Source: a virus
Length of the DNA stretch: 64,000 nt
Virus record (IMG/VR): IMGVR_UViG_3300037461_001289
Strand: one strand, 5' to 3'
Of this stretch, positions 1 to 10,093 are shown piece after piece. The notes under the pieces are model-generated. The model was not told where the DNA came from, did not search any database, and worked only from the letters and a program-made list of their open reading frames with translations. Each line of letters starts with the position of its first letter. Position 1 is the stretch's first letter. Both the position numbers and the translations under genes were made by a program.

Positions 1-1
1 G

Positions 2-574
2 TTTCACGCGACGTGGCTCCCCAAGACCGACTTCGCGACCGCGGCGCTGCCGCTGCCGGCGTACGACGTGATCGTATGCCTCGAGGTCCTCGAGCACGTC
101 GAGCCGCTCCACGCACTCCGCATGCTGCAGCGGATGCGCAGCCTCTTGCCGGTCGACGGCGTCGCGTTCGTCTCGACGCCGTGCTACGACGCGCACGTCG
201 GCGCCGCGGCCAACCACGTCAACGAGATGACGCACGCCGCGCTGCGCGGACTGCTCGGCCTCGCCGGGCTGCGCGTCGACGATGTCTGGGGGACGTTCGC
301 GTCGCAGAAGGACTATGTCGACCTCATCGAGCAGCACGTGCCGCGCGCGACGTGGGACCGGCTCGCGGCGTACTATGATTCGTCCGTGCTCGCGTGTGTG
401 CTCGCGCCGCTGTTCCCCGAGCGTGCGCGTAACTGCCTGTGGCGGCTCGGCCCCGCCGACGTGCTGACCGCGCCGGCCGACGCGGCGGCGTTCCTCGACC
501 CGAGCAGCTCGTCGAGCGCGCTGTGGGCCGCGCACGCGGCGCAGATCTACGACGAAGTAACACACGGATCATAA
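2..574 (+). CDS. Class I SAM-dependent methyltransferase, 5'-truncated by window edge
   Basis: Frame open from base 2; YDVIVCLEVLEHVEP and FVSTPCY motifs typical of Methyltransf_11/23-like proteins. Confidence 0.7.
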   Translation, partial: FHATWLPKTDFATAALPLPAYDVIVCLEVLEHVEPLHALRMLQRMRSLLPVDGVAFVSTPCYDAHVGAAANHVNEMTHAALRGLLGLAGLRVDDVWGTFASQKDYVDLIEQHVPRATWDRLAAYYDSSVLACVLAPLFPERARNCLWRLGPADVLTAPADAAAFLDPSSSSSALWAAHAAQIYDEVTHGS

Positions 575-588
575 CAGGGAGGACAGCG

Positions 589-966
589 ATGACACTGTAT
601 GAGCGCATCAAGAGTGGGTTCACAACGGCTGCGGTCGAAGCGCTAGACGATCTTATCACGTTAAGGTATGAGCGCGATCAAGCGGTTCAACTGGTCCACA
701 ACCGAAAGAAGTACGTGAGCTATGACAAGCTCCGTGTCGACTTGGAGAAGGTCGTCGCGTTGGCGCGCGCGAAGCCGTTGTTGAGCGTGGAGCAGATTAA
801 AAAGGAGTTGGAGAGTGAGCGCATCGTGTGGTACCAGGTTTGTTTGAGCTGCGTTGACCAGCTTGAGCTTCTGCCGAAGTTGCGCAAGTTGCACGGCTGC
901 GAGCTGAAGAAAGAAAAGCAGTACACGTGCGACATCAAGACGTGGGATGACGACAATGAGCTCTGA
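589..966 (+). CDS. Hypothetical protein, lower GC than neighbours
   Basis: SD GGAGG upstream of ATG 589; many A/T-ending codons. Confidence 0.6.
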   Translation: MTLYERIKSGFTTAAVEALDDLITLRYERDQAVQLVHNRKKYVSYDKLRVDLEKVVALARAKPLLSVEQIKKELESERIVWYQVCLSCVDQLELLPKLRKLHGCELKKEKQYTCDIKTWDDDNEL

Positions 967-1354
967 CCTGTTCAACGACGTGCACCAGCACTACCTCGAT
1001 CTCGGGTTCACCGAGCCCGATGCGACGCCGCGGCTGCTCGGGCCGTTGACCGCGTCGCAACGGTTGGCGTTCATGAAGGAGGAGCTGGATGAGTACGCCG
1101 ACGCGCTGCTGGCCGACGACATCGACGGGCAGGTCGACGCGCTGATCGATGAGGTCGTCGTCATCCTCGGAACGCTGTCGCTGATGGGTATGGGGCGAGC
1201 GTTTCCTGCCTGCTGGGACGAGGTCCTGCGGGCGAATCGCGCGAAGGTGCCGGGCGTCGGCAAACGCGGGATGGCGCAGGATTTGATAAAGCCCGACGGG
1301 TGGACGCCGCCGGACCACCTCACGATCTTGCGTCGGCACGGCTATGTCAAGTAG
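947..1354 (+). CDS. MazG/PRA-PH-like all-alpha nucleotide pyrophosphohydrolase
   Basis: EELDEY...DALIDEVVV...WDEVLRANRAK...DLIKPDGW pattern; nucleotide-metabolism context. Confidence 0.75.
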   Translation: MTTMSSDLFNDVHQHYLDLGFTEPDATPRLLGPLTASQRLAFMKEELDEYADALLADDIDGQVDALIDEVVVILGTLSLMGMGRAFPACWDEVLRANRAKVPGVGKRGMAQDLIKPDGWTPPDHLTILRRHGYVK

Positions 1355-3215
1355 GCCCACAGCAGTCGCGGCGCATGTCTTCGCCGGGGGGTTTAGCCTC
1401 GGCGTGCGCGACCGCTTCGACGTGCGCGCGCACCTCGAGACGTCGAGCTACGGTGGCGACACGTGTCGTCACAACTTCCCCGGCGTCGACGTGCGCGTCA
1501 GCCCGACGGGCGCGTGGCCGACTGACGACCTCGTCGGCGCCGACCTCGTGTTCAGCAATCCGCCGTGTGCGTTGTGGAGCAGCGCGGGCGCGCGCGGCGG
1601 CGTACGCAAGCGCGACTATGCCCTTGGCTACGACCCGCGCGACGGTCGCATCGCGCTCTTCCAACAGGCCTTTGGGCTCCTTGCGCGGCTGCGGCCGTGC
1701 GCGCTCGTCATCGAGAGCGTGCTGCAGTCGTGGGCACGCGGACGTCCGTTTCTCGATCCGCTCATCGCGGTGGCCGCCGCATGCGGCTACGGCTGCGACG
1801 TCGTCTTCCACGACGCCTACGACTGCGGCGCGCCGCAGCACCGCAAGCGTGTGGTCTACGTCTTCACACGTGTCGCCATCCCGTGGGCGCGGCCGGCCGT
1901 CTCCGGGCCGCGGACGGTCGGCGAAGCACTCGCCGGCGTCGACCCTGGTGACCGCCTTCAGCCGTTGCGGCCGTCGGAGGCCGAGTGCCTCGCGCGGACG
2001 CCGCCGGGCGGGAAGCTCAACGTCGCATACGACAGCATCTACGGTGACAGCCGGCTCGGCGAGCTGCGCCCGGGGCAGCGCGCGGGGAAGCCGAGCTTCC
2101 TTGACCTGCGGCTCGACCTCGCCAAGCCGGCGCCGACGTGCGTCGGCGGGTTCCACTACTACCACCCGACTGAGGCGCGGCATCTGACGATCCGTGAGAC
2201 GCAGGTGCTCTGCGGTTACCCGTCGACATACGAGTTCACCGACCGGCTCGACACGTGCTATCGTCAGATCGCCCAGGCGGTCATGCCGCCGGTCGGACGC
2301 TGGCTCGCGAACGTCATCGCCGACGCGCTCGACGCGAACGCGCCGCGCGGCACCGGCCTGCGCAGCTATGACCTCATCAACAACACGGCCGCGACGGTGA
2401 TCGCGGCGCCAACGCTTCACGAACAGGAGGGACCCGACATGACCAAGCTGGACCAGAACGTCGTCGACCGCGCGCTGCGTAAGGCCGTCGAGATGCGGCT
2501 GTGGCTGAACCACCGCAGCGCCGATGCTATCACCTACTTCTTGGGCAAGGCCGTCGACGCGTACGAGCGCGAGGCTCAGATGGGGTTCCGCGTGCTGCAG
2601 GACTACGACGAGCCCGAGGCGCCGTCTGCAGCCGTGTTGCCGTTCAACCCCGATCCGCCGACGGCCGCGGTGACGACGACGTTCACGCCGACCGTCGCTG
2701 CGCCGCTGTCTGCGCGCGTCGCCGCGCCGCCGCCCGCGCGCGTCGCTGCGCCGCCACCGACTGCGCCGCAGCCAGCGCCGCCGCCCGCCCGCGTCGTCGT
2801 GTCACCCCCGGCTGCGCCGCAGCCAGCGCTGCCGCCCGCGCGCGTCGCCGCGCCGCCGGCGTGGCCTGTCGCCGCCCCACCGGCGCCGGTGGCGTCGCCC
2901 GTCGAGGCCGCGCCTGCGAAGCCGCCCACGAAGCCGGCGCCGGAGCTGCCTGAGGTCTCCGCCGAGCTCGTCGAGTACTTCCGCCCGAAGGACGCGGCCG
3001 GCGCGACCAAGCCACGCGCGGCGGCCGAGCTGATCCGTACGATGCTTCAGATCGCCGACGAGGCGACGGGCACGTGTGCGTACACCGACCTCGAGATCGC
3101 GGCGACGGCGCGGGCCGCGTACCCCGACCTCGGCCCGCTCGTCTACAAGTACCCGGGCGAGGCGCGTTACCGGCTCAAGAAGCAGGGCCTCAACCCGCCG
3201 CCGCCACGCGTGTGA
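1344..3215 (+). CDS. DNA cytosine-5 methyltransferase with long Pro/Ala-rich C-terminal extension
   Basis: Motif I HVFAGGFS, catalytic NPPC, IESV (ENV variant), PQHRKRV, RHLTIRETQVLCGYP, QIAQAV. Confidence 0.85.
   Translation: MSSRPTAVAAHVFAGGFSLGVRDRFDVRAHLETSSYGGDTCRHNFPGVDVRVSPTGAWPTDDLVGADLVFSNPPCALWSSAGARGGVRKRDYALGYDPRDGRIALFQQAFGLLARLRPCALVIESVLQSWARGRPFLDPLIAVAAACGYGCDVVFHDAYDCGAPQHRKRVVYVFTRVAIPWARPAVSGPRTVGEALAGVDPGDRLQPLRPSEAECLARTPPGGKLNVAYDSIYGDSRLGELRPGQRAGKPSFLDLRLDLAKPAPTCVGGFHYYHPTEARHLTIRETQVLCGYPSTYEFTDRLDTCYRQIAQAVMPPVGRWLANVIADALDANAPRGTGLRSYDLINNTAATVIAAPTLHEQEGPDMTKLDQNVVDRALRKAVEMRLWLNHRSADAITYFLGKAVDAYEREAQMGFRVLQDYDEPEAPSAAVLPFNPDPPTAAVTTTFTPTVAAPLSARVAAPPPARVAAPPPTAPQPAPPPARVVVSPPAAPQPALPPARVAAPPAWPVAAPPAPVASPVEAAPAKPPTKPAPELPEVSAELVEYFRPKDAAGATKPRAAAELIRTMLQIADEATGTCAYTDLEIAATARAAYPDLGPLVYKYPGEARYRLKKQGLNPPPPRV
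2439..3215 (+). CDS. Probable in-frame nested protein (MTKLDQ...) translated from an internal start
   Basis: Strong SD CAGGAGG just upstream of in-frame ATG 2439, right after MTase motif X. Confidence 0.5.
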   Translation: MTKLDQNVVDRALRKAVEMRLWLNHRSADAITYFLGKAVDAYEREAQMGFRVLQDYDEPEAPSAAVLPFNPDPPTAAVTTTFTPTVAAPLSARVAAPPPARVAAPPPTAPQPAPPPARVVVSPPAAPQPALPPARVAAPPAWPVAAPPAPVASPVEAAPAKPPTKPAPELPEVSAELVEYFRPKDAAGATKPRAAAELIRTMLQIADEATGTCAYTDLEIAATARAAYPDLGPLVYKYPGEARYRLKKQGLNPPPPRV

Positions 3216-3270
3216 AACGCTTCAACAGCGTATTTTTTTGTTTACACCACACGCGCGGCGGGCGTAACGT
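3212..3270 (+). promoter_or_regulatory. Terminator/promoter cassette: small hairpin + T7 tract, then sigma70-like promoter
   Basis: ACGCT-loop-AGCGT then ATTTTTTT; TTTACA (3241-3246)-18-TAACGT (3265-3270); 33/35 identical to 63115-63149. Confidence 0.75.
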
Positions 3271-3311
3271 TAGCGAGCGACGGTCGAGGTACGACGGACA
3301 ACGAACGGAGG

Positions 3312-3932
3312 ATGACAGTGATGACAACGACTGCGGCAGCGGTGAAGATCAACAAGCATACGGACACCATCGAGCGGGAGGTCATCCTGTGCGGCACGCG
3401 CGACATCATGTTCGACCGGTACGCCGGCGACAACGACACGAAGCTGGAGCCGTGGCAGAAGCTCTACCTCGAACCCGGGGACAGTCGGGTTATTGGACTG
3501 CCGGCGGCGAACATCATGTCTGCGCTTTCGGCCCACAACACGAATTCGTTTCCGAAGCGCCTGCGGGACAAGCGCAAGTTCAAGGACATCTGCAACGCCT
3601 GCCTGTCGTTCGTTGAGATCGACCCACAGTTCATCCCGTTCCTGCGCGACGGGAAGCCCATCGTCTTCGGCAAGTTCAACAAGGACCACGACGCGACGAG
3701 CGGGACCTATGTGACGTACAACGTCGCGCGGCTCGACAAGGGCATCCCGAATCCGAAGGTGCGACCCGTGCTGCCGTTGCCCTGGGCGCTCACGTTCAAG
3801 CTGACCATCTACCCGAATAAGGAGATCCAAGAGCAGGAGATCATCAATCTATTCGAGGACGGCGGGCGCGCGGTGGGGCTCGGCACGTTCCGCGGGCTGT
3901 ACGGCAAGTTCATCGTCGAGAAGTGGGCCTAA
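3312..3932 (+). CDS. Stand-alone RAMP/Cas7-like protein (Vipr-like candidate RNA-guided effector)
   Basis: About 205 aa; N-terminal strand EVILCGTRDIMF, LPAANI, RPVLPLPWALTFKLTI and C-terminal Gly-rich loop GLGTFRGLYGKFIV; followed directly by GGY-NN arrays; start may be GTG 3318 or ATG 3321. Confidence 0.7.
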   Translation: MTVMTTTAAAVKINKHTDTIEREVILCGTRDIMFDRYAGDNDTKLEPWQKLYLEPGDSRVIGLPAANIMSALSAHNTNSFPKRLRDKRKFKDICNACLSFVEIDPQFIPFLRDGKPIVFGKFNKDHDATSGTYVTYNVARLDKGIPNPKVRPVLPLPWALTFKLTIYPNKEIQEQEIINLFEDGGRAVGLGTFRGLYGKFIVEKWA

Positions 3933-3939
3933 ACGATGC

Positions 3940-4024
3940 GGCCTGGCCCGGCGCGGCGCGGTTGGGCGGTGCCCGGCCGGGCGCGGCCTGGCCCGGCGCG
4001 GCGCGGCTCGGCACGGCGAGGCAA
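3940..4024 (+). ncRNA. GGY-NN pentamer array 1 (17 units), putative guide RNA
   Basis: GGCCT GGCCC GGCGC GGCGC GGTTG GGCGG TGCCC GGCCG GGCGC GGCCT GGCCC GGCGC GGCGC GGCTC GGCAC GGCGA GGCAA; 16/17 units start GGY; ncRNA role is inferred. Confidence 0.75.
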
Positions 4025-4075
4025 GGGCTGTCCATGACCGTTGAGATTGAACGTCTGAGCGGTCAGCCATTATGC

Positions 4076-4185
4076 GGCGGGGTACGGCGAGGCACGGCGA
4101 GGTCGAGCACGGCAAGGCGCGGCGCGGTCGGGCCCGGCGAGGCGAGGTCGGGCGTGGCGGGGTAGGGCCGGGCGCGGCGAGGCAA
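4076..4185 (+). ncRNA. GGY-NN pentamer array 2 (22 units), putative guide RNA
   Basis: Exact 5-nt period, 21/22 units start GGY (one AGCAC); same ATGC lead-in and GGCGA GGCAA GGG end as array 1. Confidence 0.75.
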
Positions 4186-4213
4186 GGGTTATTTAGACGA
4201 CGCGGAGGATGTC

Positions 4214-5134
4214 ATGACGTCCAAGCGGTTGTGGGTCCTCGAAGGCCCCGACGGCGGCGGGAAGTCGACGCTCGCCGTCGATCTGGCGGCGCGGACCGGG
4301 GCGGACGTCGTCCACTGCGGGCCGTTCCCCCAGGTCCACCACGGCCTGGGGCGGCTGTACGTCGAGGCGATGTTGCCCGCGCTCTTGGGTCACCGCGACG
4401 TCATCCTGGACCGCTCGTGGCTGTCGGAGCCGGTCTACGCCGCGGCGCGGCGACACCAGCCGTCACGGCTCACCGCCGTCGACCTCAGGATGCTCGAGCG
4501 CGTCGCGGCGCGCTGTCAGACGACGGTGGTGCGGTGCCTGCCGCCGCTCGCGACGTGCGCGACGGCCTACGCGGCGCGCAAGGACCTTGAGTACCTCAAG
4601 AGCGCTGACGAGCTGGCCGAGGTCTGGGGGCTGTACGCCGTCGGGCTGCGGACCGGGCTGCCGACCGTCGACTACGACTTCACGGCCGAGGGCCCGCTTG
4701 TCCCGGGGCTGGTCACCGCGACGACGGCTGCCCACCAGCTCGGCACCGCGAGCGCCGGCTACCTCGATGCCCCGGTGCTCCTCGTCGGCGAGGCGTTCGC
4801 GGCACATAAGGAGCAGGACCCGCTCCACCAGGCGCCCTTCGTCAGCTTCGGGGCCGGCGGCTGCGCGCAGTGGTTGACGGCGCAGCTCGAGCGCGCCGGC
4901 GTCCCCGAGCGCCAGCTGCTGTGGGTCAACGCCGACCAGAACCTCGCTGCGGTGCTCTTCAACGCGCGGCCCAAGGTCGTCGTCGCGCTCGGTGAGGCCG
5001 CGGCGATGGCGGTCGCGGCGGCAGTTCCGGCGGGCGTCGCGGTGGCCTGCGTCGCGCATCCGCAGCACGCGAAGCGGTTTCACCACCGCGCGTCGTATGA
5101 GCTGATCACGGTGCTCAAGGAGGCGTTGTCATGA
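4214..5134 (+). CDS. Thymidylate/dNMP kinase fused to a UDG-superfamily-like domain
   Basis: P-loop LEGPDGGGKST and DRSWLSEPVY; C-terminal LLVGEAF...WVNA...VVALGEAA...HPQH. Confidence 0.75.
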   Translation: MTSKRLWVLEGPDGGGKSTLAVDLAARTGADVVHCGPFPQVHHGLGRLYVEAMLPALLGHRDVILDRSWLSEPVYAAARRHQPSRLTAVDLRMLERVAARCQTTVVRCLPPLATCATAYAARKDLEYLKSADELAEVWGLYAVGLRTGLPTVDYDFTAEGPLVPGLVTATTAAHQLGTASAGYLDAPVLLVGEAFAAHKEQDPLHQAPFVSFGAGGCAQWLTAQLERAGVPERQLLWVNADQNLAAVLFNARPKVVVALGEAAAMAVAAAVPAGVAVACVAHPQHAKRFHHRASYELITVLKEALS

Positions 5135-5964
5135 GCGTCTGCGGGGTCCAACCTGGCGACCCGGCCTCGGCCGGCGAACTGGCCTGGCGACGGGCGTTGC
5201 ACCGCGTCATCACCGAGGGCGCGACGGTCGCCCCGCGCGGGCAGACGACCTACGAGCTGCTGGCGCACACCGTGTCGTGCGACCTCGCCCGCGCCGTCGT
5301 GACGTCGCCGGCGCGGAAGCTCAACTACAAGTTCATGTGCGCTGAGGCGCTGTGGATCCTCGACGGGCTGAACACCTTGGCGCCGCTGACGCGCTTCGTC
5401 GCACGGATGAAGGACTTCAGCGACGACGGCGAGACGTTGGCCGGCGCCTACGGCCCGCGGCTCGTGCCGCAGCTGCCGTATGTCGTCAACGCGCTCGTCC
5501 GGGACCGCGAGACGCGGCAGGCGGTCGCGTCGATCTGGACCCCGTCGCCGGCGCCGTCGAAGGACGTTCCATGCACGTTGGCCGTGACGTTCAGCGTGCG
5601 GAACGGGCTGCTCTACCAGCACGTGATGATGCGCTCGAGCGATCTGTGGTTGGGGATCCCGTACGACCTCTTCAGCTTCTCGTGCTGGGGCGTCTACGTC
5701 GCGTGCGCGTTCAACTCACGGCTCGCGGCGGCGAGGTATGACGGGCCCATCGGCCTCGGGGCGCTGACCGTGACCGCGTCGTCGAGCCACCTGTACCACC
5801 GCGACCTCGCCGCGGCCCAGGCGGTGCTGCAGACGACGCCGGCGGCGCCCGTCGCGCCCTGCCCCGATGAGCTGGTACGCACCGGCGCTTGGAAGGCGAT
5901 CCGCGCTGACCTGATCGAGCAGCGCGAAGGACATCCGGCGTTGGCATGGCAGGTCGTGCCGTGA
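5131..5964 (+). CDS. Thymidylate synthase-family enzyme, Asp-type (putative dCMP hydroxymethylase/methylase)
   Basis: GAYGPRL, TRQAV, catalytic VPCT, MRSSDLWLGIPYD (Asp where ThyA has Asn). Confidence 0.8.
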   Translation: MSVCGVQPGDPASAGELAWRRALHRVITEGATVAPRGQTTYELLAHTVSCDLARAVVTSPARKLNYKFMCAEALWILDGLNTLAPLTRFVARMKDFSDDGETLAGAYGPRLVPQLPYVVNALVRDRETRQAVASIWTPSPAPSKDVPCTLAVTFSVRNGLLYQHVMMRSSDLWLGIPYDLFSFSCWGVYVACAFNSRLAAARYDGPIGLGALTVTASSSHLYHRDLAAAQAVLQTTPAAPVAPCPDELVRTGAWKAIRADLIEQREGHPALAWQVVP

Positions 5965-6458
5965 GCCCCACCTACGTCGTCGCCTCCGACCAGGAGCGCC
6001 GCACGCCACCGTGGCTGTACCGCGCGTGCTGCGACCTCCTCGGGGTAGCGGTGTGTCGGCTCGACGCGTTCGCGTGGGGCGAGAACGCGCTGTGTGAGCG
6101 CTACTACAGCGAGCTCGACGACGGGCTCGCGCAACCTTGGCTTGATCGTAGCTTTGCAAATCCGCCTTTCAAGCTGATGGCGCGGGTCGTCGACAAGGCC
6201 GTCGCGGAGCTGCGGGTCAACGGGGTCAGGTCAGCGCTCGTCGGGCCGGCGGGCTGCAGCCAGGTCTGGTTTCATCGTTTGTGGCCGTACGCGACGGTCT
6301 ACCTGCCCGACCAACGCCTCGTCTACCTCGACCACGACGGGCGGCCGACGCGCGGCGCGATGCAGGACAGCGCGGTGTACATCGTCAACAACTTGCAGCC
6401 GCGCGAACGTCCGGAGGTCTTCGTGCTGCACGTCGACGACTGGTTGGAGACGGCGTGA
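5961..6458 (+). CDS. Phage Dam-like DNA N6-adenine methyltransferase
   Basis: RRTPPWLY, LDAFA, GLAQPW, FANPPF; GTGA overlap with previous stop. Confidence 0.8.
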   Translation: MSPTYVVASDQERRTPPWLYRACCDLLGVAVCRLDAFAWGENALCERYYSELDDGLAQPWLDRSFANPPFKLMARVVDKAVAELRVNGVRSALVGPAGCSQVWFHRLWPYATVYLPDQRLVYLDHDGRPTRGAMQDSAVYIVNNLQPRERPEVFVLHVDDWLETA

Positions 6459-6769
6459 TGCCGCACGAGGGGTCGAAGGCGAAGCGCGTGCTCGACCAGG
6501 TGCGGGCGCTGCTCGGCGTGTCGACGGCCGGGCCGGCGTGCCTGACGTGCGGGGCTGTGACGCCGTGTCAGGTATGCGGTGGCAAGCAGGTGCGCGCGGA
6601 GAACCTCATCCGCGCGCTGCGCGAGGTGCTACGCGAGACCCCGGGCGACGGGCTCGGCCCGGGCTGGGGGCGGGAAAACCAGCAGCTGGAGGAGCAGCGG
6701 GCGGGGACGTTCGCGGCGACGACGTTGGCGTTGAGCGGCCGGAAGTTCAGCGGAAACGAGAGTGATTGA
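6458..6769 (+). CDS. Hypothetical protein with CxxC...CxxC zinc ribbon
   Basis: CLTC and CQVC; TGATG coupling at both ends. Confidence 0.6.
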   Translation: MPHEGSKAKRVLDQVRALLGVSTAGPACLTCGAVTPCQVCGGKQVRAENLIRALREVLRETPGDGLGPGWGRENQQLEEQRAGTFAATTLALSGRKFSGNESD

Positions 6770-7203
6770 TGAGACCGACGCGAAATGAGTGGCTGCTCGA
6801 CATGGCCGCGCTGGTCGCGCGGCGGTCGACCTGCGCCCGGCGCAGCGTCGGCTGCGTGCTCGTCGACGTCCGCGGACACGTATTGTCCACTGGCTACAAT
6901 GGCCGGCCGCGGGGCTTCGCCCACTGCAACGAGGGCGCGCCGTGCCCCGGCGTCGGCGCGCCGACGGGGTCCGACCTCGATCTGTGCGAGTCGGTCCACG
7001 CGGAGCAAAATGCGCTCTTGCAGTGCCGCGACGTCGAGTTGATCGAGGTCTGCTACGTGACCGTCTCGCCGTGCCTGACGTGCGTCAAGCTGCTGCTCAA
7101 CACGTCGTGTCGGCGGGTCGTCGCGGCGGCGCCGTACGCGCACGAGGCCGCCGCCCGCGAGCTGTGGACGCGCGGTGGACGCCGTTGGGAGGTGCCGACG
7201 TGA
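6769..7203 (+). CDS. dCMP deaminase
   Basis: STCARRSVGCVL, GYNG, HAEQNA and SPCLTC zinc ligands. Confidence 0.92.
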   Translation: MRPTRNEWLLDMAALVARRSTCARRSVGCVLVDVRGHVLSTGYNGRPRGFAHCNEGAPCPGVGAPTGSDLDLCESVHAEQNALLQCRDVELIEVCYVTVSPCLTCVKLLLNTSCRRVVAAAPYAHEAAARELWTRGGRRWEVPT

Positions 7204-7823
7204 CGAAGCGGCCGGGGGCAAGGCGTCAGAAGATCGTTGAAAGGTGCCCTAGCTGGCTGGAGCCGGTCGAGCCCGTCACACCGTTTGTGACGAGCGTCGG
7301 GCAGGCGCGGACGGTCCTGGCGACGTTGTCGGCGCATATCGGCGATGCCCTCGAGCAGCGTGACGCCCTGCTCGACTACTTGGCGGCGCACGGTTCAGCG
7401 CCAGCCAAGCGTGAGCGGCTGCCGGGGCCGCCGTACGCGGCGGAGCAGGTTACGACGCGGCGGTCGCGGGTCTGCAAGCTGCGCATCGGCGCGAAAGGCG
7501 CGCCGGGGTACGTCAGCTGCCACCTGTTCCTGGGGTTCTATCCCGACGGGCGGCTCGGCGAGCTGTTCGTGCAGCTCGGGCGCGAGCACCGCAGCGACCT
7601 CGCTGGTGGCGGGTTCCACTGGGGCGCGAAGATGGCGTCGCTCGCGCTGCAGCACGGCGCTACGGTCGAGTCGGTGCTGCGCCAGATGCGCTACGACCGC
7701 GACGCCTCGGGCGGACGGCCGCACGGTGCTGACGGGCCGCTCAAGACGTTGACCGGGGTGACATCGTTGACCGACTACCTCGGGTTGGTGATCGAGCGGG
7801 TGCTGGCGGAGTCGAAGGCGTGA
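7200..7823 (+). CDS. TSCPD-domain protein (class II ribonucleotide reductase C-terminal-like)
   Basis: GFYPDGRLGELFV...SLALQHGATVESVL...VTSLTDYLG; GTGA coupling. Confidence 0.65.
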   Translation: MTKRPGARRQKIVERCPSWLEPVEPVTPFVTSVGQARTVLATLSAHIGDALEQRDALLDYLAAHGSAPAKRERLPGPPYAAEQVTTRRSRVCKLRIGAKGAPGYVSCHLFLGFYPDGRLGELFVQLGREHRSDLAGGGFHWGAKMASLALQHGATVESVLRQMRYDRDASGGRPHGADGPLKTLTGVTSLTDYLGLVIERVLAESKA

Positions 7824-8170
7824 CAGATACTCGATTGTCGCGCGGCCGAGGAGCCGAGGACATGACCGACGGTATCGACAACCTGGAAACGATGGTCGCG
7901 CGGCTGACCGCCGAGAACGCGCGGCTGCGCGCAGAGGTGGAGTCGCTGCGGTCGGAACTTGGACATAACGCCAAACTGCTGACCGCCGACCTCGCCCGCG
8001 TGACGGCAGATCGGGATGCGCTGGTGGTGGCGCTCGACGCGGCGGCTCGCTCGCTGGAATGGATCGCGAGTTACGGCATCCGTGACGAAGATCCCGAGTC
8101 GCTACGGCAGTACACGGCCAACCGAGCGTGTGTGGCTCGTGCCGTGGCGGGTGCCAAGGTGGGCCAGTGA
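7820..8170 (+). CDS. Coiled-coil hypothetical protein
   Basis: Heptad pattern LTAENARLRAEVESL; coupled to neighbours. Confidence 0.6.
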   Translation: MTDTRLSRGRGAEDMTDGIDNLETMVARLTAENARLRAEVESLRSELGHNAKLLTADLARVTADRDALVVALDAAARSLEWIASYGIRDEDPESLRQYTANRACVARAVAGAKVGQ

Positions 8171-8559
8171 CCATCACGCGAGATAAGCTAGTCGAGGCTC
8201 TGCGGCTCCACCGGGCGCCACTCGTCGAGGCCGACGAGTGGCGCCCCCTGGCCGACCATGTTCTCGAACTGGCCGCGCACGGCATGCTGGAACAAGAACC
8301 GCCGGACGTTCCCGCCAGCCCCGAGACGACCGGGCACTCCTGGCACAGCATCGGCGACGGCTACCTCGAATCTATCTGGCGGTTGCGGCGGTGCCTCGCC
8401 ATCATGCGCTCCAACTTGCGCGCACCTGACTCGTGGAATGAAATGCGGCTCCATCAAAAAAGGGTGGCATGGCATGCCTTCACGGCAACAAAGAAGCAAT
8501 ACGTCAACCCGAAGAATTACGAACTGGTCCTGCGGCCGAAGAAGCGCAACGTGAGGTAG
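8167..8559 (+). CDS. Hypothetical protein
   Basis: GTG 8167 overlaps previous stop; open frame. Confidence 0.55.
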   Translation: MTITRDKLVEALRLHRAPLVEADEWRPLADHVLELAAHGMLEQEPPDVPASPETTGHSWHSIGDGYLESIWRLRRCLAIMRSNLRAPDSWNEMRLHQKRVAWHAFTATKKQYVNPKNYELVLRPKKRNVR

Positions 8560-8561
8560 CT

Positions 8562-8756
8562 ATGCTGCTCTGGTGCGAGTCGTGCAACGCCGAAGTTACT
8601 CCGAGACCGTGCGCGCTGTGCAACGGTTGGTGAGATAAGTGGTACTGCCCGCACTGCGCTCACGAGATCGGCACGCCGAACGAAGACGTCCGGTTCCCCG
8701 AGGGGCGCGAGTCTGGGTGGGTCCGGCGCACCGACGGGGACACCGACGGCAAGTAG
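8562..8756 (+). pseudogene. Triple-CxxC zinc-ribbon ORF interrupted by in-frame TGA (8631-8633)
   Basis: MLLWCESC...CALCNGW*DKWYCPHC...DGK*. Confidence 0.45.
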
Positions 8757-8802
8757 CAGAACAAATGGCTGTTTGTCCGACGAGGGGTAGCGAAAAGACG
8801 TG

Positions 8803-8840
8803 TGATTACGCGTACTTAGGCACGTAACTACGCGTAATCA
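8803..8840. repeat. Inverted repeat, candidate tyrosine-recombinase (lox/dif-like) site
   Basis: TGATTACGCGTACTTA-GGCACG-TAACTACGCGTAATCA: 16-bp arms with one mismatch, 6-bp asymmetric core, about 95 bp upstream of the recombinase. Confidence 0.6.
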
Positions 8841-8875
8841 TTAGACTTTCCGGCTTTTCGCCGGCGGCGTTGTTC

Positions 8876-8891
8876 TATAATACGCGCGTAT
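8876..8891 (+). promoter_or_regulatory. -10 element TATAAT overlapping palindrome ATACGCGCGTAT upstream of recombinase
   Basis: Perfect TATAAT 8876-8881; no clear -35; palindrome resembles the IR arm core TACGCG. Confidence 0.45.
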
Positions 8892-8934
8892 GATACGATG
8901 GCTCGACATGCCGCGATGGAAAGGGCGTAACACG

Positions 8935-9873
8935 GTGAGCACCGCGCTCGTACGACGCGACGACGCGCGACCGCCGACGGGGCTTGCGTTGCCGCCGCGA
9001 CAGCTCGCAGCGGCGCAGCGCTATCTCGCTGCGGCCCGCGCGCCAAACACACATCTGGCGCGCCGGGCTGATTGGCGCGTGTTCACGGCGTGGTGCGACG
9101 CCAACGCGCGGCCAGCGCTGCCGGCCGGGGTCGACACCGTCTTCTCGTTCCTGCTCGATCAGGTCGACATGCACGCGAAGAAGCCGGCGACGCTGGCGCG
9201 TTACTTGACGTCCATCGCGACGGCGCACGGCGGTGCTGGGCTGCCTGACCCGACCAAGGAGAAGCGGATCGCTGAGCTGATGGACGGGGTCCGGCGAGTA
9301 CGCGGGACGCGGCAGCGGCTCGCGGCACCGGTGACCCACGAGGTGCTCACGGCTGTGAAGCCGCATTGCGACTTGCGCGATTGGGCGGTCGTGTGCTTCG
9401 GGCAGGCGCTTGCAGCGCGGCGGTCGGAGCTGTGCGCCCTTGACGTGGCCGACCTCAAGTTCGAGGCGCAGGGCGTCGCGGTCACGTTCCGCCGGTCGAA
9501 GACCGATCAAGAGGGCAAGGGCGCGGTGATCGGGGTGCGTCGGCTGCCCGGGTCGCCGCTGTGCCCGGTCGCGGCGCTCGAGGCGTACCTGCAGGGGCGC
9601 GCCAGCGGGCCGGTGTTCCGCGGGACGCGGGCGGCGCACCTGACGCCGATGGAGGTCCACCGCACGGTCAAGCGGGTCGTGGCGGCGGCCGGGTACGACC
9701 CGGCGCTGTACTCCGGCCACAGCCTGCGGGCGGGGTACGTCACCGACGCCCGCCGCGCGGGTCAGTCGTGGACAGCGATCATGGGGCATACGCGGCACAG
9801 CGACCTCAAGACGGTGAAGGGGTACGCGCGCTATGACGTCGATCCATTCGCCACCGCGCCCAAAGAGGCATAG
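8935..9873 (+). CDS. Tyrosine recombinase, Cre-like with N-terminal SAM-like domain
   Basis: Catalytic residues ARRSEL (R), SKTD (K), GHSLRAG (HxxR), HTRH, VKGY (Y); GTG start after GGAAAGGG. Confidence 0.9.
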   Translation: MSTALVRRDDARPPTGLALPPRQLAAAQRYLAAARAPNTHLARRADWRVFTAWCDANARPALPAGVDTVFSFLLDQVDMHAKKPATLARYLTSIATAHGGAGLPDPTKEKRIAELMDGVRRVRGTRQRLAAPVTHEVLTAVKPHCDLRDWAVVCFGQALAARRSELCALDVADLKFEAQGVAVTFRRSKTDQEGKGAVIGVRRLPGSPLCPVAALEAYLQGRASGPVFRGTRAAHLTPMEVHRTVKRVVAAAGYDPALYSGHSLRAGYVTDARRAGQSWTAIMGHTRHSDLKTVKGYARYDVDPFATAPKEA

Positions 9874-9883
9874 AATGCGAGCC

Positions 9884-10093
9884 ATGCCGACGAAACGCGC
9901 CCCGAAGTCAGCACCGCTGCTGCCCACCTACGAGGAGGCGGCGCTGTACTTCGGTGCGCCGAGCGACGACGATCTGTGCCTGGTCATCGCCTTGAACGCC
10001 TACCGCGACCGCACTGGGCGTGACATCGAGGAATTCAAGGCCGGGATGCAGCTGTTGTGGGCGCACAGCGCCAAGGCCGAGGTCGGTGCATGA
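9884..10093 (+). CDS. Small hypothetical protein
   Basis: ATG 9884; ATGA-coupled to next gene. Confidence 0.5.
   Translation: MPTKRAPKSAPLLPTYEEAALYFGAPSDDDLCLVIALNAYRDRTGRDIEEFKAGMQLLWAHSAKAEVGA

Follow-up and report, generated by a model that had tools for sequence, protein, structure and literature searches.

VIPR (Viral Interference Programmable Repeat) is a CRISPR-related system of RNA-guided DNA silencing described in preprints of 2026, which cover its discovery and one-base-skip code (bioRxiv 10.64898/2026.04.26.720920), its cryo-EM structure and R-loop triplex (bioRxiv 10.64898/2026.04.26.720927), and phage-satellite competition (10.64898/2026.10.15.759431). Seven types have been published, and the family has been proposed as an ancestor of the CRISPR RAMPs. 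The reference system is the type II system of Escherichia phage SUSP1 (PDB 36pp). Each Vipr protomer binds one GGY of the vrRNA, and the exposed NN bases pair with DNA, passing over every third base of it (xNN); this pairing has been shown experimentally (10.64898/2026.04.26.720920 and 10.64898/2026.04.26.720927), and NN alone programmes DNA targeting in the family (10.64898/2026.04.26.720920). R-loop formation runs from the 3′ end of the guide, and binding represses transcription. The vrRNAs of known systems are discrete RNAs of approximately 100 nt that co-purify with Vipr. Natural targets lie in competing phages, prophages, satellites and other VIPR loci, with the skipped base usually at the codon wobble position. 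The VIPR paper accepts targets with an NN match of at least 80%, and its own systems contained no self-targets (10.64898/2026.04.26.720920).

We analysed a stretch of 64,000 nucleotides of viral DNA (IMG/VR record IMGVR_UViG_3300037461_001289), referred to below as the window, whose sequence was found in DNA runs from wetland metagenomes and in no RNA run. With a probability of roughly 0.88, it carries a VIPR locus that consists of a stand-alone vipr gene and two vrRNA genes on the same strand, in a high-GC phage of a wetland metagenome. Like known VIPR systems, the locus encodes a small stand-alone RAMP with an RRM core, a thumb and a C-terminal glycine-rich loop, and has same-strand arrays of GGY/NN pentamers directly beside the gene. 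The NN bases are hypervariable, the 3′ end is constant, the system is phage-borne, and the window contains no self-target. It differs from characterised systems in lacking the conserved vap gene that is typical of them, and in belonging to a clade where position 3 of the unit is almost always C. As stand-alone vipr genes without vap are on record (10.64898/2026.04.26.720920), the absence of vap is compatible with VIPR membership.

The vipr gene, its product and its neighbours

The vipr gene (3312..3932, plus strand) was identified from its open reading frame and translation together with PDB and AlphaFold-DB matches, and encodes a 206-aa stand-alone Cas7-like RAMP, P0001. Its sole sequence match in the PDB was 36pp_D, the 'SUSP1 Vipr protein', with E 0.029 for the single sequence and 7.4e-5 for a profile of 30 sequences; the alignment spans the C-terminal 50 residues only. 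In SUSP1 Vipr the thumb residue R138 contacts G2, D177 contacts G1, and an aromatic residue and an arginine of the G-loop hold G2 and Y3 (10.64898/2026.04.26.720927). The invariant R151 of P0001 aligns to R138, and its G-loop GLGTFRG aligns to SUSP1 GVGDWRP. In this alignment P0001 retains the aromatic residue and the arginine, and has threonine in place of D177. The thumb of P0001 contains the invariant motif ARLDKGIPNPK-RP. Pfam returned nothing for P0001, and PHROGs returned a weak, unannotated family only.

An AlphaFold2 model of P0001 (pLDDT 88, pTM 0.83) was compared with known structures using Foldseek. The top matches in the PDB were Csm3/Cas7 RAMPs of type III systems (E 1.6e-5, probability 1.0). 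The five best AlphaFold-DB clusters, with E from 3e-9 to 9e-6, were X1U2U4, A0A0F9A1L0, A0A1F4YLN4, A0A661D0E2 and A0A2D6XG06, and the same five entries were the first non-CRISPR RAMP hits of the VIPR discovery paper (10.64898/2026.04.26.720920). Judged by sequence and predicted fold, P0001 is a Vipr protein. Since its similarity to SUSP1 Vipr is distant, the locus probably represents a VIPR type other than the type II of SUSP1.

The type III Cas7 proteins Csm3 and Cmr4 (6xn3_F, 9ash_F, 6ifn_E) share the RAMP fold of P0001, with a TM score of about 0.5. They also bind one protomer per RNA segment of fixed length, and the thumb flips bases out at regular intervals. In contrast to type III CRISPR systems, the period here is 5 nt and not 6, and nearby there is neither a repeat-spacer array nor any other cas gene, such as those for Cas10, Cas5, the small subunit or Cas6: no CRISPR repeat-spacer array was found in positions 1-10000, and the nearby genes encode enzymes of DNA modification and nucleotide metabolism. 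The VIPR guide is moreover non-contiguous, its target is double-stranded DNA, and the protein is without the CRISPR RAMP additions.

The gene upstream of vipr encodes a C5 cytosine methylase whose long repeat tail is rich in Ala/Pro, and an ORF for a P-loop, dNMP-kinase-like protein (4214-5134, plus strand) lies directly 3′ of the second array. The locus thus sits inside a module of DNA-modification and nucleotide genes (1344-3215 and 4214-6458), which also includes a thymidylate-synthase homologue and a Dam-type methylase. This module suggests a phage with modified DNA. A terminator-like hairpin with a T-run (3217..3240, plus strand; stem 3217-3231) follows the upstream methylase gene, and probably delimits the vipr-vrRNA unit on its 5′ side. 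A search for a consensus sigma-70 promoter found none; a weak candidate, TTTACA-18 nt-TAACGT at 3241-3270, was picked out by eye.

Two pentamer arrays and their constant 3′ ends

The intergenic stretch 3933-4213 holds two arrays of GGYNN pentamers in the same orientation as the genes on either side. Direct reading of positions 3400-4700 showed that the repeat tract of vrRNA 1 (3940..4024, plus strand) starts 8 nt past the vipr stop codon, and comprises 17 pentamers in strict register; 16 units carry GGC or GGT followed by two variable bases, and unit 7 (3970) has TGC instead. The repeat tract of vrRNA 2 (4076..4185, plus strand) comprises 22 pentamers, 21 of them with GGY, and its unit 7 (4106) has AGC. 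Recomputation gave exactly the NN strings listed in an earlier note on this DNA: CT CC GC GC TG GG CC CG GC CT CC GC GC TC AC GA AA for array 1, and GG AC GA AC GA CG AC AA GC GC CG CC GA GA CG GT GG AG CG GC GA AA for array 2. When a pattern of six GGYNN units with one mismatch allowed was run over the window, it gave 32 overlapping matches, compared to 0.05 expected from dinucleotide shuffles, and all 32 fell inside the two arrays. Tandem Repeats Finder reported period 5 and its multiples at the arrays. The folding energy of the arrays was no better than that of shuffled sequences. Array lengths of 17 and 22 units exceed the 9-16 units reported for guides of type II VIPR.

The only unit without GG is the seventh in both arrays (TGCCC at 3970 and AGCAC at 4106), and in array 2 the unit right after AGCAC is GGCAA, which resembles the terminal motif. 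The shared anomaly could mark an old junction of two fused guides, or could be coincidence. A contig of depth 3 in the probable source run links position 4017 to 4156 through 17 other letters; it could represent a fused variant with a shorter array, or the array of another phage at 80% likeness.

As the earlier note had observed, array 1 contains an internal duplication of 20 nt: positions 3940-3959 and 3985-4004 are identical, so that units 1-4 recur as units 10-13. We roughly estimate the chance that a GC-rich array of 17 units contains such an NN identity of 8 bases at about 0.03, and for this reason a block duplication is plausible. Expansion by slippage, which had also been proposed, would be an additional step of interpretation; the copies lie 45 nt apart, are not adjacent, and are followed by different units. 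Array 2 has internal repeats as well, with periods of 25 and 35 according to Tandem Repeats Finder.

Repeats of this kind, together with the one non-GG unit in each array (TGC and AGC), might be read as signs of a decaying or idle VIPR remnant, whose guides have drifted or duplicated internally and now match nothing; that no targets were found in the collections searched (see below) points the same way. Against this, 37 of the 39 units across both arrays are intact, the vipr ORF is full-length and has every residue that is invariant in its clade, and the target searches were of low sensitivity. The arrays were also identical in contigs of two wetland metagenome runs, with no variation seen between the samples. 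We regard a remnant as improbable.

Both arrays end in GGCGA GGCAA GGG (4015..4027 for vrRNA 1 and 4176..4188 for vrRNA 2, plus strand). Directly past 4188 come a ribosome-binding site and then the start of the next gene at 4214. The suggestion that this motif is a constant 3′ handle was borne out, both by its presence in the two arrays and across the clade, where the units at positions -2 and -3 are AA or GA in approximately 76-84% of 117 unique arrays, and AA or TA is frequent in the last unit. The two guides are separated by a spacer of 48 nt with lower GC (4028..4075, plus strand), whose last bases, ATGC, also close the 5′ flank of array 1. The spacer contains a hairpin at 4036-4064, 3′ of guide 1 only, with a minimum free energy of -24.8 kcal/mol and a modest z of -1.65; relatives have a hairpin between their arrays as well. 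A known RNA family or hammerhead was considered for the spacer and rejected, as an Rfam search of 3000-5500 gave no match at E≤10.

In the SUSP1 clade the guide ends in an invariable pseudoknot tail, whereas here the 3′ end consists of constant GGCRA units and GGG. A conserved, structured tail was looked for and not found; folding prediction gave no pseudoknot at the 3′ end and no structured tail for guide 2. A tentative proposal, which we think unlikely though worth stating, is that the constant units (GGCRA ... GGCAA GGG; two to four of them, bound by Vipr) cap the guide in place of a folded RNA tail. Because R-loop formation in SUSP1 begins at the 3′ end, they could serve as a nucleation handle. 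Should they pair as the remaining units do, a fixed xGAxAA motif would lie beside every target, a PAM-like constraint that is absent from the published VIPR systems. The clade would then form a VIPR variant with a structure of its own, whose guides are 17-22 units long here (clade median 17, up to 74) and which has no accessory gene.

Relatives of the locus in viral contigs

Relatives of P0001 were found on 79 viral contigs, at 54-78% identity. At about 63 of these 79 homologue loci, GGYNN arrays with 8 or more units accompany the gene on its own strand, on one side or both, no more than tens of bases away. A search for eight consecutive GGCNN units found at least 120 loci in viral contigs, which indicates that arrays of this type are widespread in phages; a protein matching the clade profile is encoded at 27 of 120 such pattern-found loci, among the matches listed. 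No family of neighbouring genes that might represent an accessory vap is common to more than 11 of 80 loci, and the families concerned are absent from the window. The conserved unit is therefore the vipr gene with its arrays.

A logo was built from 117 unique arrays adjoining homologous genes. The unit has G in 98%, G in 98% and C in 94% or T in 4% (C/T 98.5%), followed by the variable NN, and the interiors of the arrays use all 16 NN dinucleotides. Array length ranges from 8 to 74 units with a median of 17.

The conserved triplet with variable spacer bases recalls the RNA sites of the trp RNA-binding attenuation protein (TRAP). These comprise 11 (G/U)AG triplets set 2-3 nt apart, each read by one subunit of the homo-oligomer, and the spacers carry no information. 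The likeness is that the RNA carries a conserved triplet at intervals of 5 nt. By analogy, the arrays could serve only to bind the protein, which would thereby control its own mRNA or that of the downstream gene, with no target information in NN. The spacing would suit a multi-subunit protein that wraps RNA, the arrays lie between vipr and a gene whose ribosome-binding site comes right past array 2, and the failure to find targets in the collections searched would be expected. However, P0001 has the matches of a Vipr/RAMP protein and TRAP has an unrelated fold, and in the VIPR family it is NN alone that programmes DNA targeting, so that the two spacer bases would here be the programmable part. 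Among the relatives, NN is hypervariable while GGY is fixed; this pattern suits guides more than it suits a fixed operator. A TRAP-like wrap was dropped as the main reading when P0001 was recognised as a Vipr, and we judge it to have little chance of being correct.

The distribution of the arrays also bears on whether they act as DNA, independently of vipr, for example as G-quadruplex-prone (GGN3)n tracts, as a replication or packaging signal, or as a short coding sequence. The GG-N3 spacing would fit two-tetrad quadruplex motifs, and an ORF of 80 aa (3923-4165) overlaps the arrays. This explanation does not account for the tight same-strand linkage of arrays to the Vipr gene in about 60 independent contigs, nor for a folding energy equal to that of shuffles. 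Furthermore, a period of 5 is not divisible by 3 and the arrays vary between 8 and 74 units, and therefore no conserved protein is possible. Of the explanations considered, a function at the DNA level is the least probable by our estimate, and guide RNAs of a VIPR system remain our preferred reading.

Among the cultured phages of the collection, only Burkholderia phage vB_E436 (PQ789831.1) has a homologue of P0001. The homologue, vBE436_00039, shares 62% amino acid identity and is annotated as 'hypothetical protein'. Just upstream of this gene is an array of 14 units (L001:3838-3907) that ends in GGCGA GGCGA GGGCTGT, like the arrays of the window. Five of its 14 units have GGA, with a purine where the SUSP1 structure excludes purines. 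In some viral contigs the uninterrupted arrays are very long, with 142 units (L009:6301-7010) and 74 units (L143:3944-4313). Many contigs (L005, L034 and L108 among them) have abutting arrays with a one-base overlap and a frame shift, and these match the 'staggered' vrRNA arrays in fig. S18 of the VIPR paper (10.64898/2026.04.26.720920).

Decoding, target searches and the proposed mechanism

By analogy with characterised VIPR systems, the array stretch would be transcribed with vipr or just after it, and the vrRNAs are predicted to end near GGCAAGGG. One Vipr protomer would bind each GGY to form a helical filament along the RNA with NN exposed, and NN would pair with double-stranded DNA that carries the same dinucleotides with one skipped base between them (xNN). 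Guide 1 would cover some 45-51 bp of DNA, and guide 2 some 60-66 bp. The bound complex would repress transcription of a competing mobile element. Expression, processing, filament formation, one-base-skip reading and silencing at this locus are all extrapolated from the published work.

Since the locus has the protein and the arrays of a VIPR system, one-base-skip reading is expected here. Guide 1 would then decode to CTxCCxGCxGCxTGxGGxCCxCGxGCxCTxCCxGCxGCxTCxAC(xGAxAA), and guide 2 to the corresponding string of 20(+2) units. The earlier note had already proposed that NN pairs read a target with one base skipped. That proposal agrees with what has been demonstrated experimentally in the family; in the present data no target match rose above background. 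The pattern search suggested as a check was carried out, and no collection searched yielded xNN matches above background, in searches that could detect near-perfect targets only.

Within the window, the best scores of both guides at skips of 0-3 equalled those of 100 unit-shuffles, with no excess that would indicate a self-target. Exact seeds of 8 units from 476 unique arrays were compared with 201 fetched loci, and real and shuffled seeds gave the same result at each skip (15 and 16 matches at skip 0, 22 and 23 at skip 1, 3 and 2 at skip 2, and 17 and 14 at skip 3, respectively). The possibility that the guides are aimed at the VIPR loci of rivals was pursued in VIPR-bearing loci totalling 1.66 Mb, with mismatches allowed, and was rejected because the best scores equalled those of shuffles.

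IMG/VR was scanned with five seeds of 10 units and one of 8 units, and the best extension reached 29/44. For guide 2, units 1-10 gave one match that extended to 24/44 only, units 6-15 gave none, units 11-20 gave two identical matches of 29/44 that were out of the wobble frame, and units 13-20 gave 13 loci, the best at 29/40. Units 1-10 and 6-15 of guide 1 had no match in IMG/VR. In the JGI metagenomes, units 6-15 of guide 1 gave 13 matches. The best of these, in contig L213, scored 28/34 and was rejected as a target, as it lies off-frame inside a cellular PfkB kinase gene; by a rough estimate, a few matches of 27/30 are expected by chance in GC-rich DNA of the JGI volume. Seven of the 13 are one conserved intergenic stretch that scored 21-24/34. 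This stretch (L208:8894-8922, and also in L207, L209, L211, L214, L215 and L217) lies between two same-strand genes in seven contigs from soil or wetland metagenomes, with a GC content of about 56%, and matches units 6-15 exactly with little match beyond. ORFs overlapping it had no Pfam match, and it is probably a chance match multiplied by conservation.

Units 10-20 of guide 2, used as an 11-unit seed on 185,579 GTDB genomes, produced two matches whose extensions (9/22 and 8/22) were at chance level. When 401 Pseudomonadota genomes were searched with 3 mismatches or fewer allowed, guide 2 had no match and guide 1 had 4, compared to 1 for a reversed-pattern control. Peptides decoded from guide 2 on both strands found no match by tblastn in 50,697 records of cultured phages. 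Across the collections, no NN match of at least 80% was found in a convincing context; guide 2 reached 29/44 and 31/44 at best, and guide 1 reached 28/34. Collection scans depended on 8-11 units without mismatch and genome searches tolerated no more than 3 mismatches; most targets at 80-90% would therefore have been missed. Because the searches detect near-perfect targets only, the lack of targets neither confirms nor refutes the code for these two guides.

The locus adds a high-GC environmental phage member to VIPR. Its clade has many members in viral metagenomes, with 79 homologue loci from a single scan, and is marked by long guides, constant repeat-type 3′ ends and the lack of an accessory gene. 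The locus leaves the known mechanism of VIPR unchanged. The cultured phage vB_E436 could open this clade to study at the bench, and the targets of the guides would reveal what the phage competes with.
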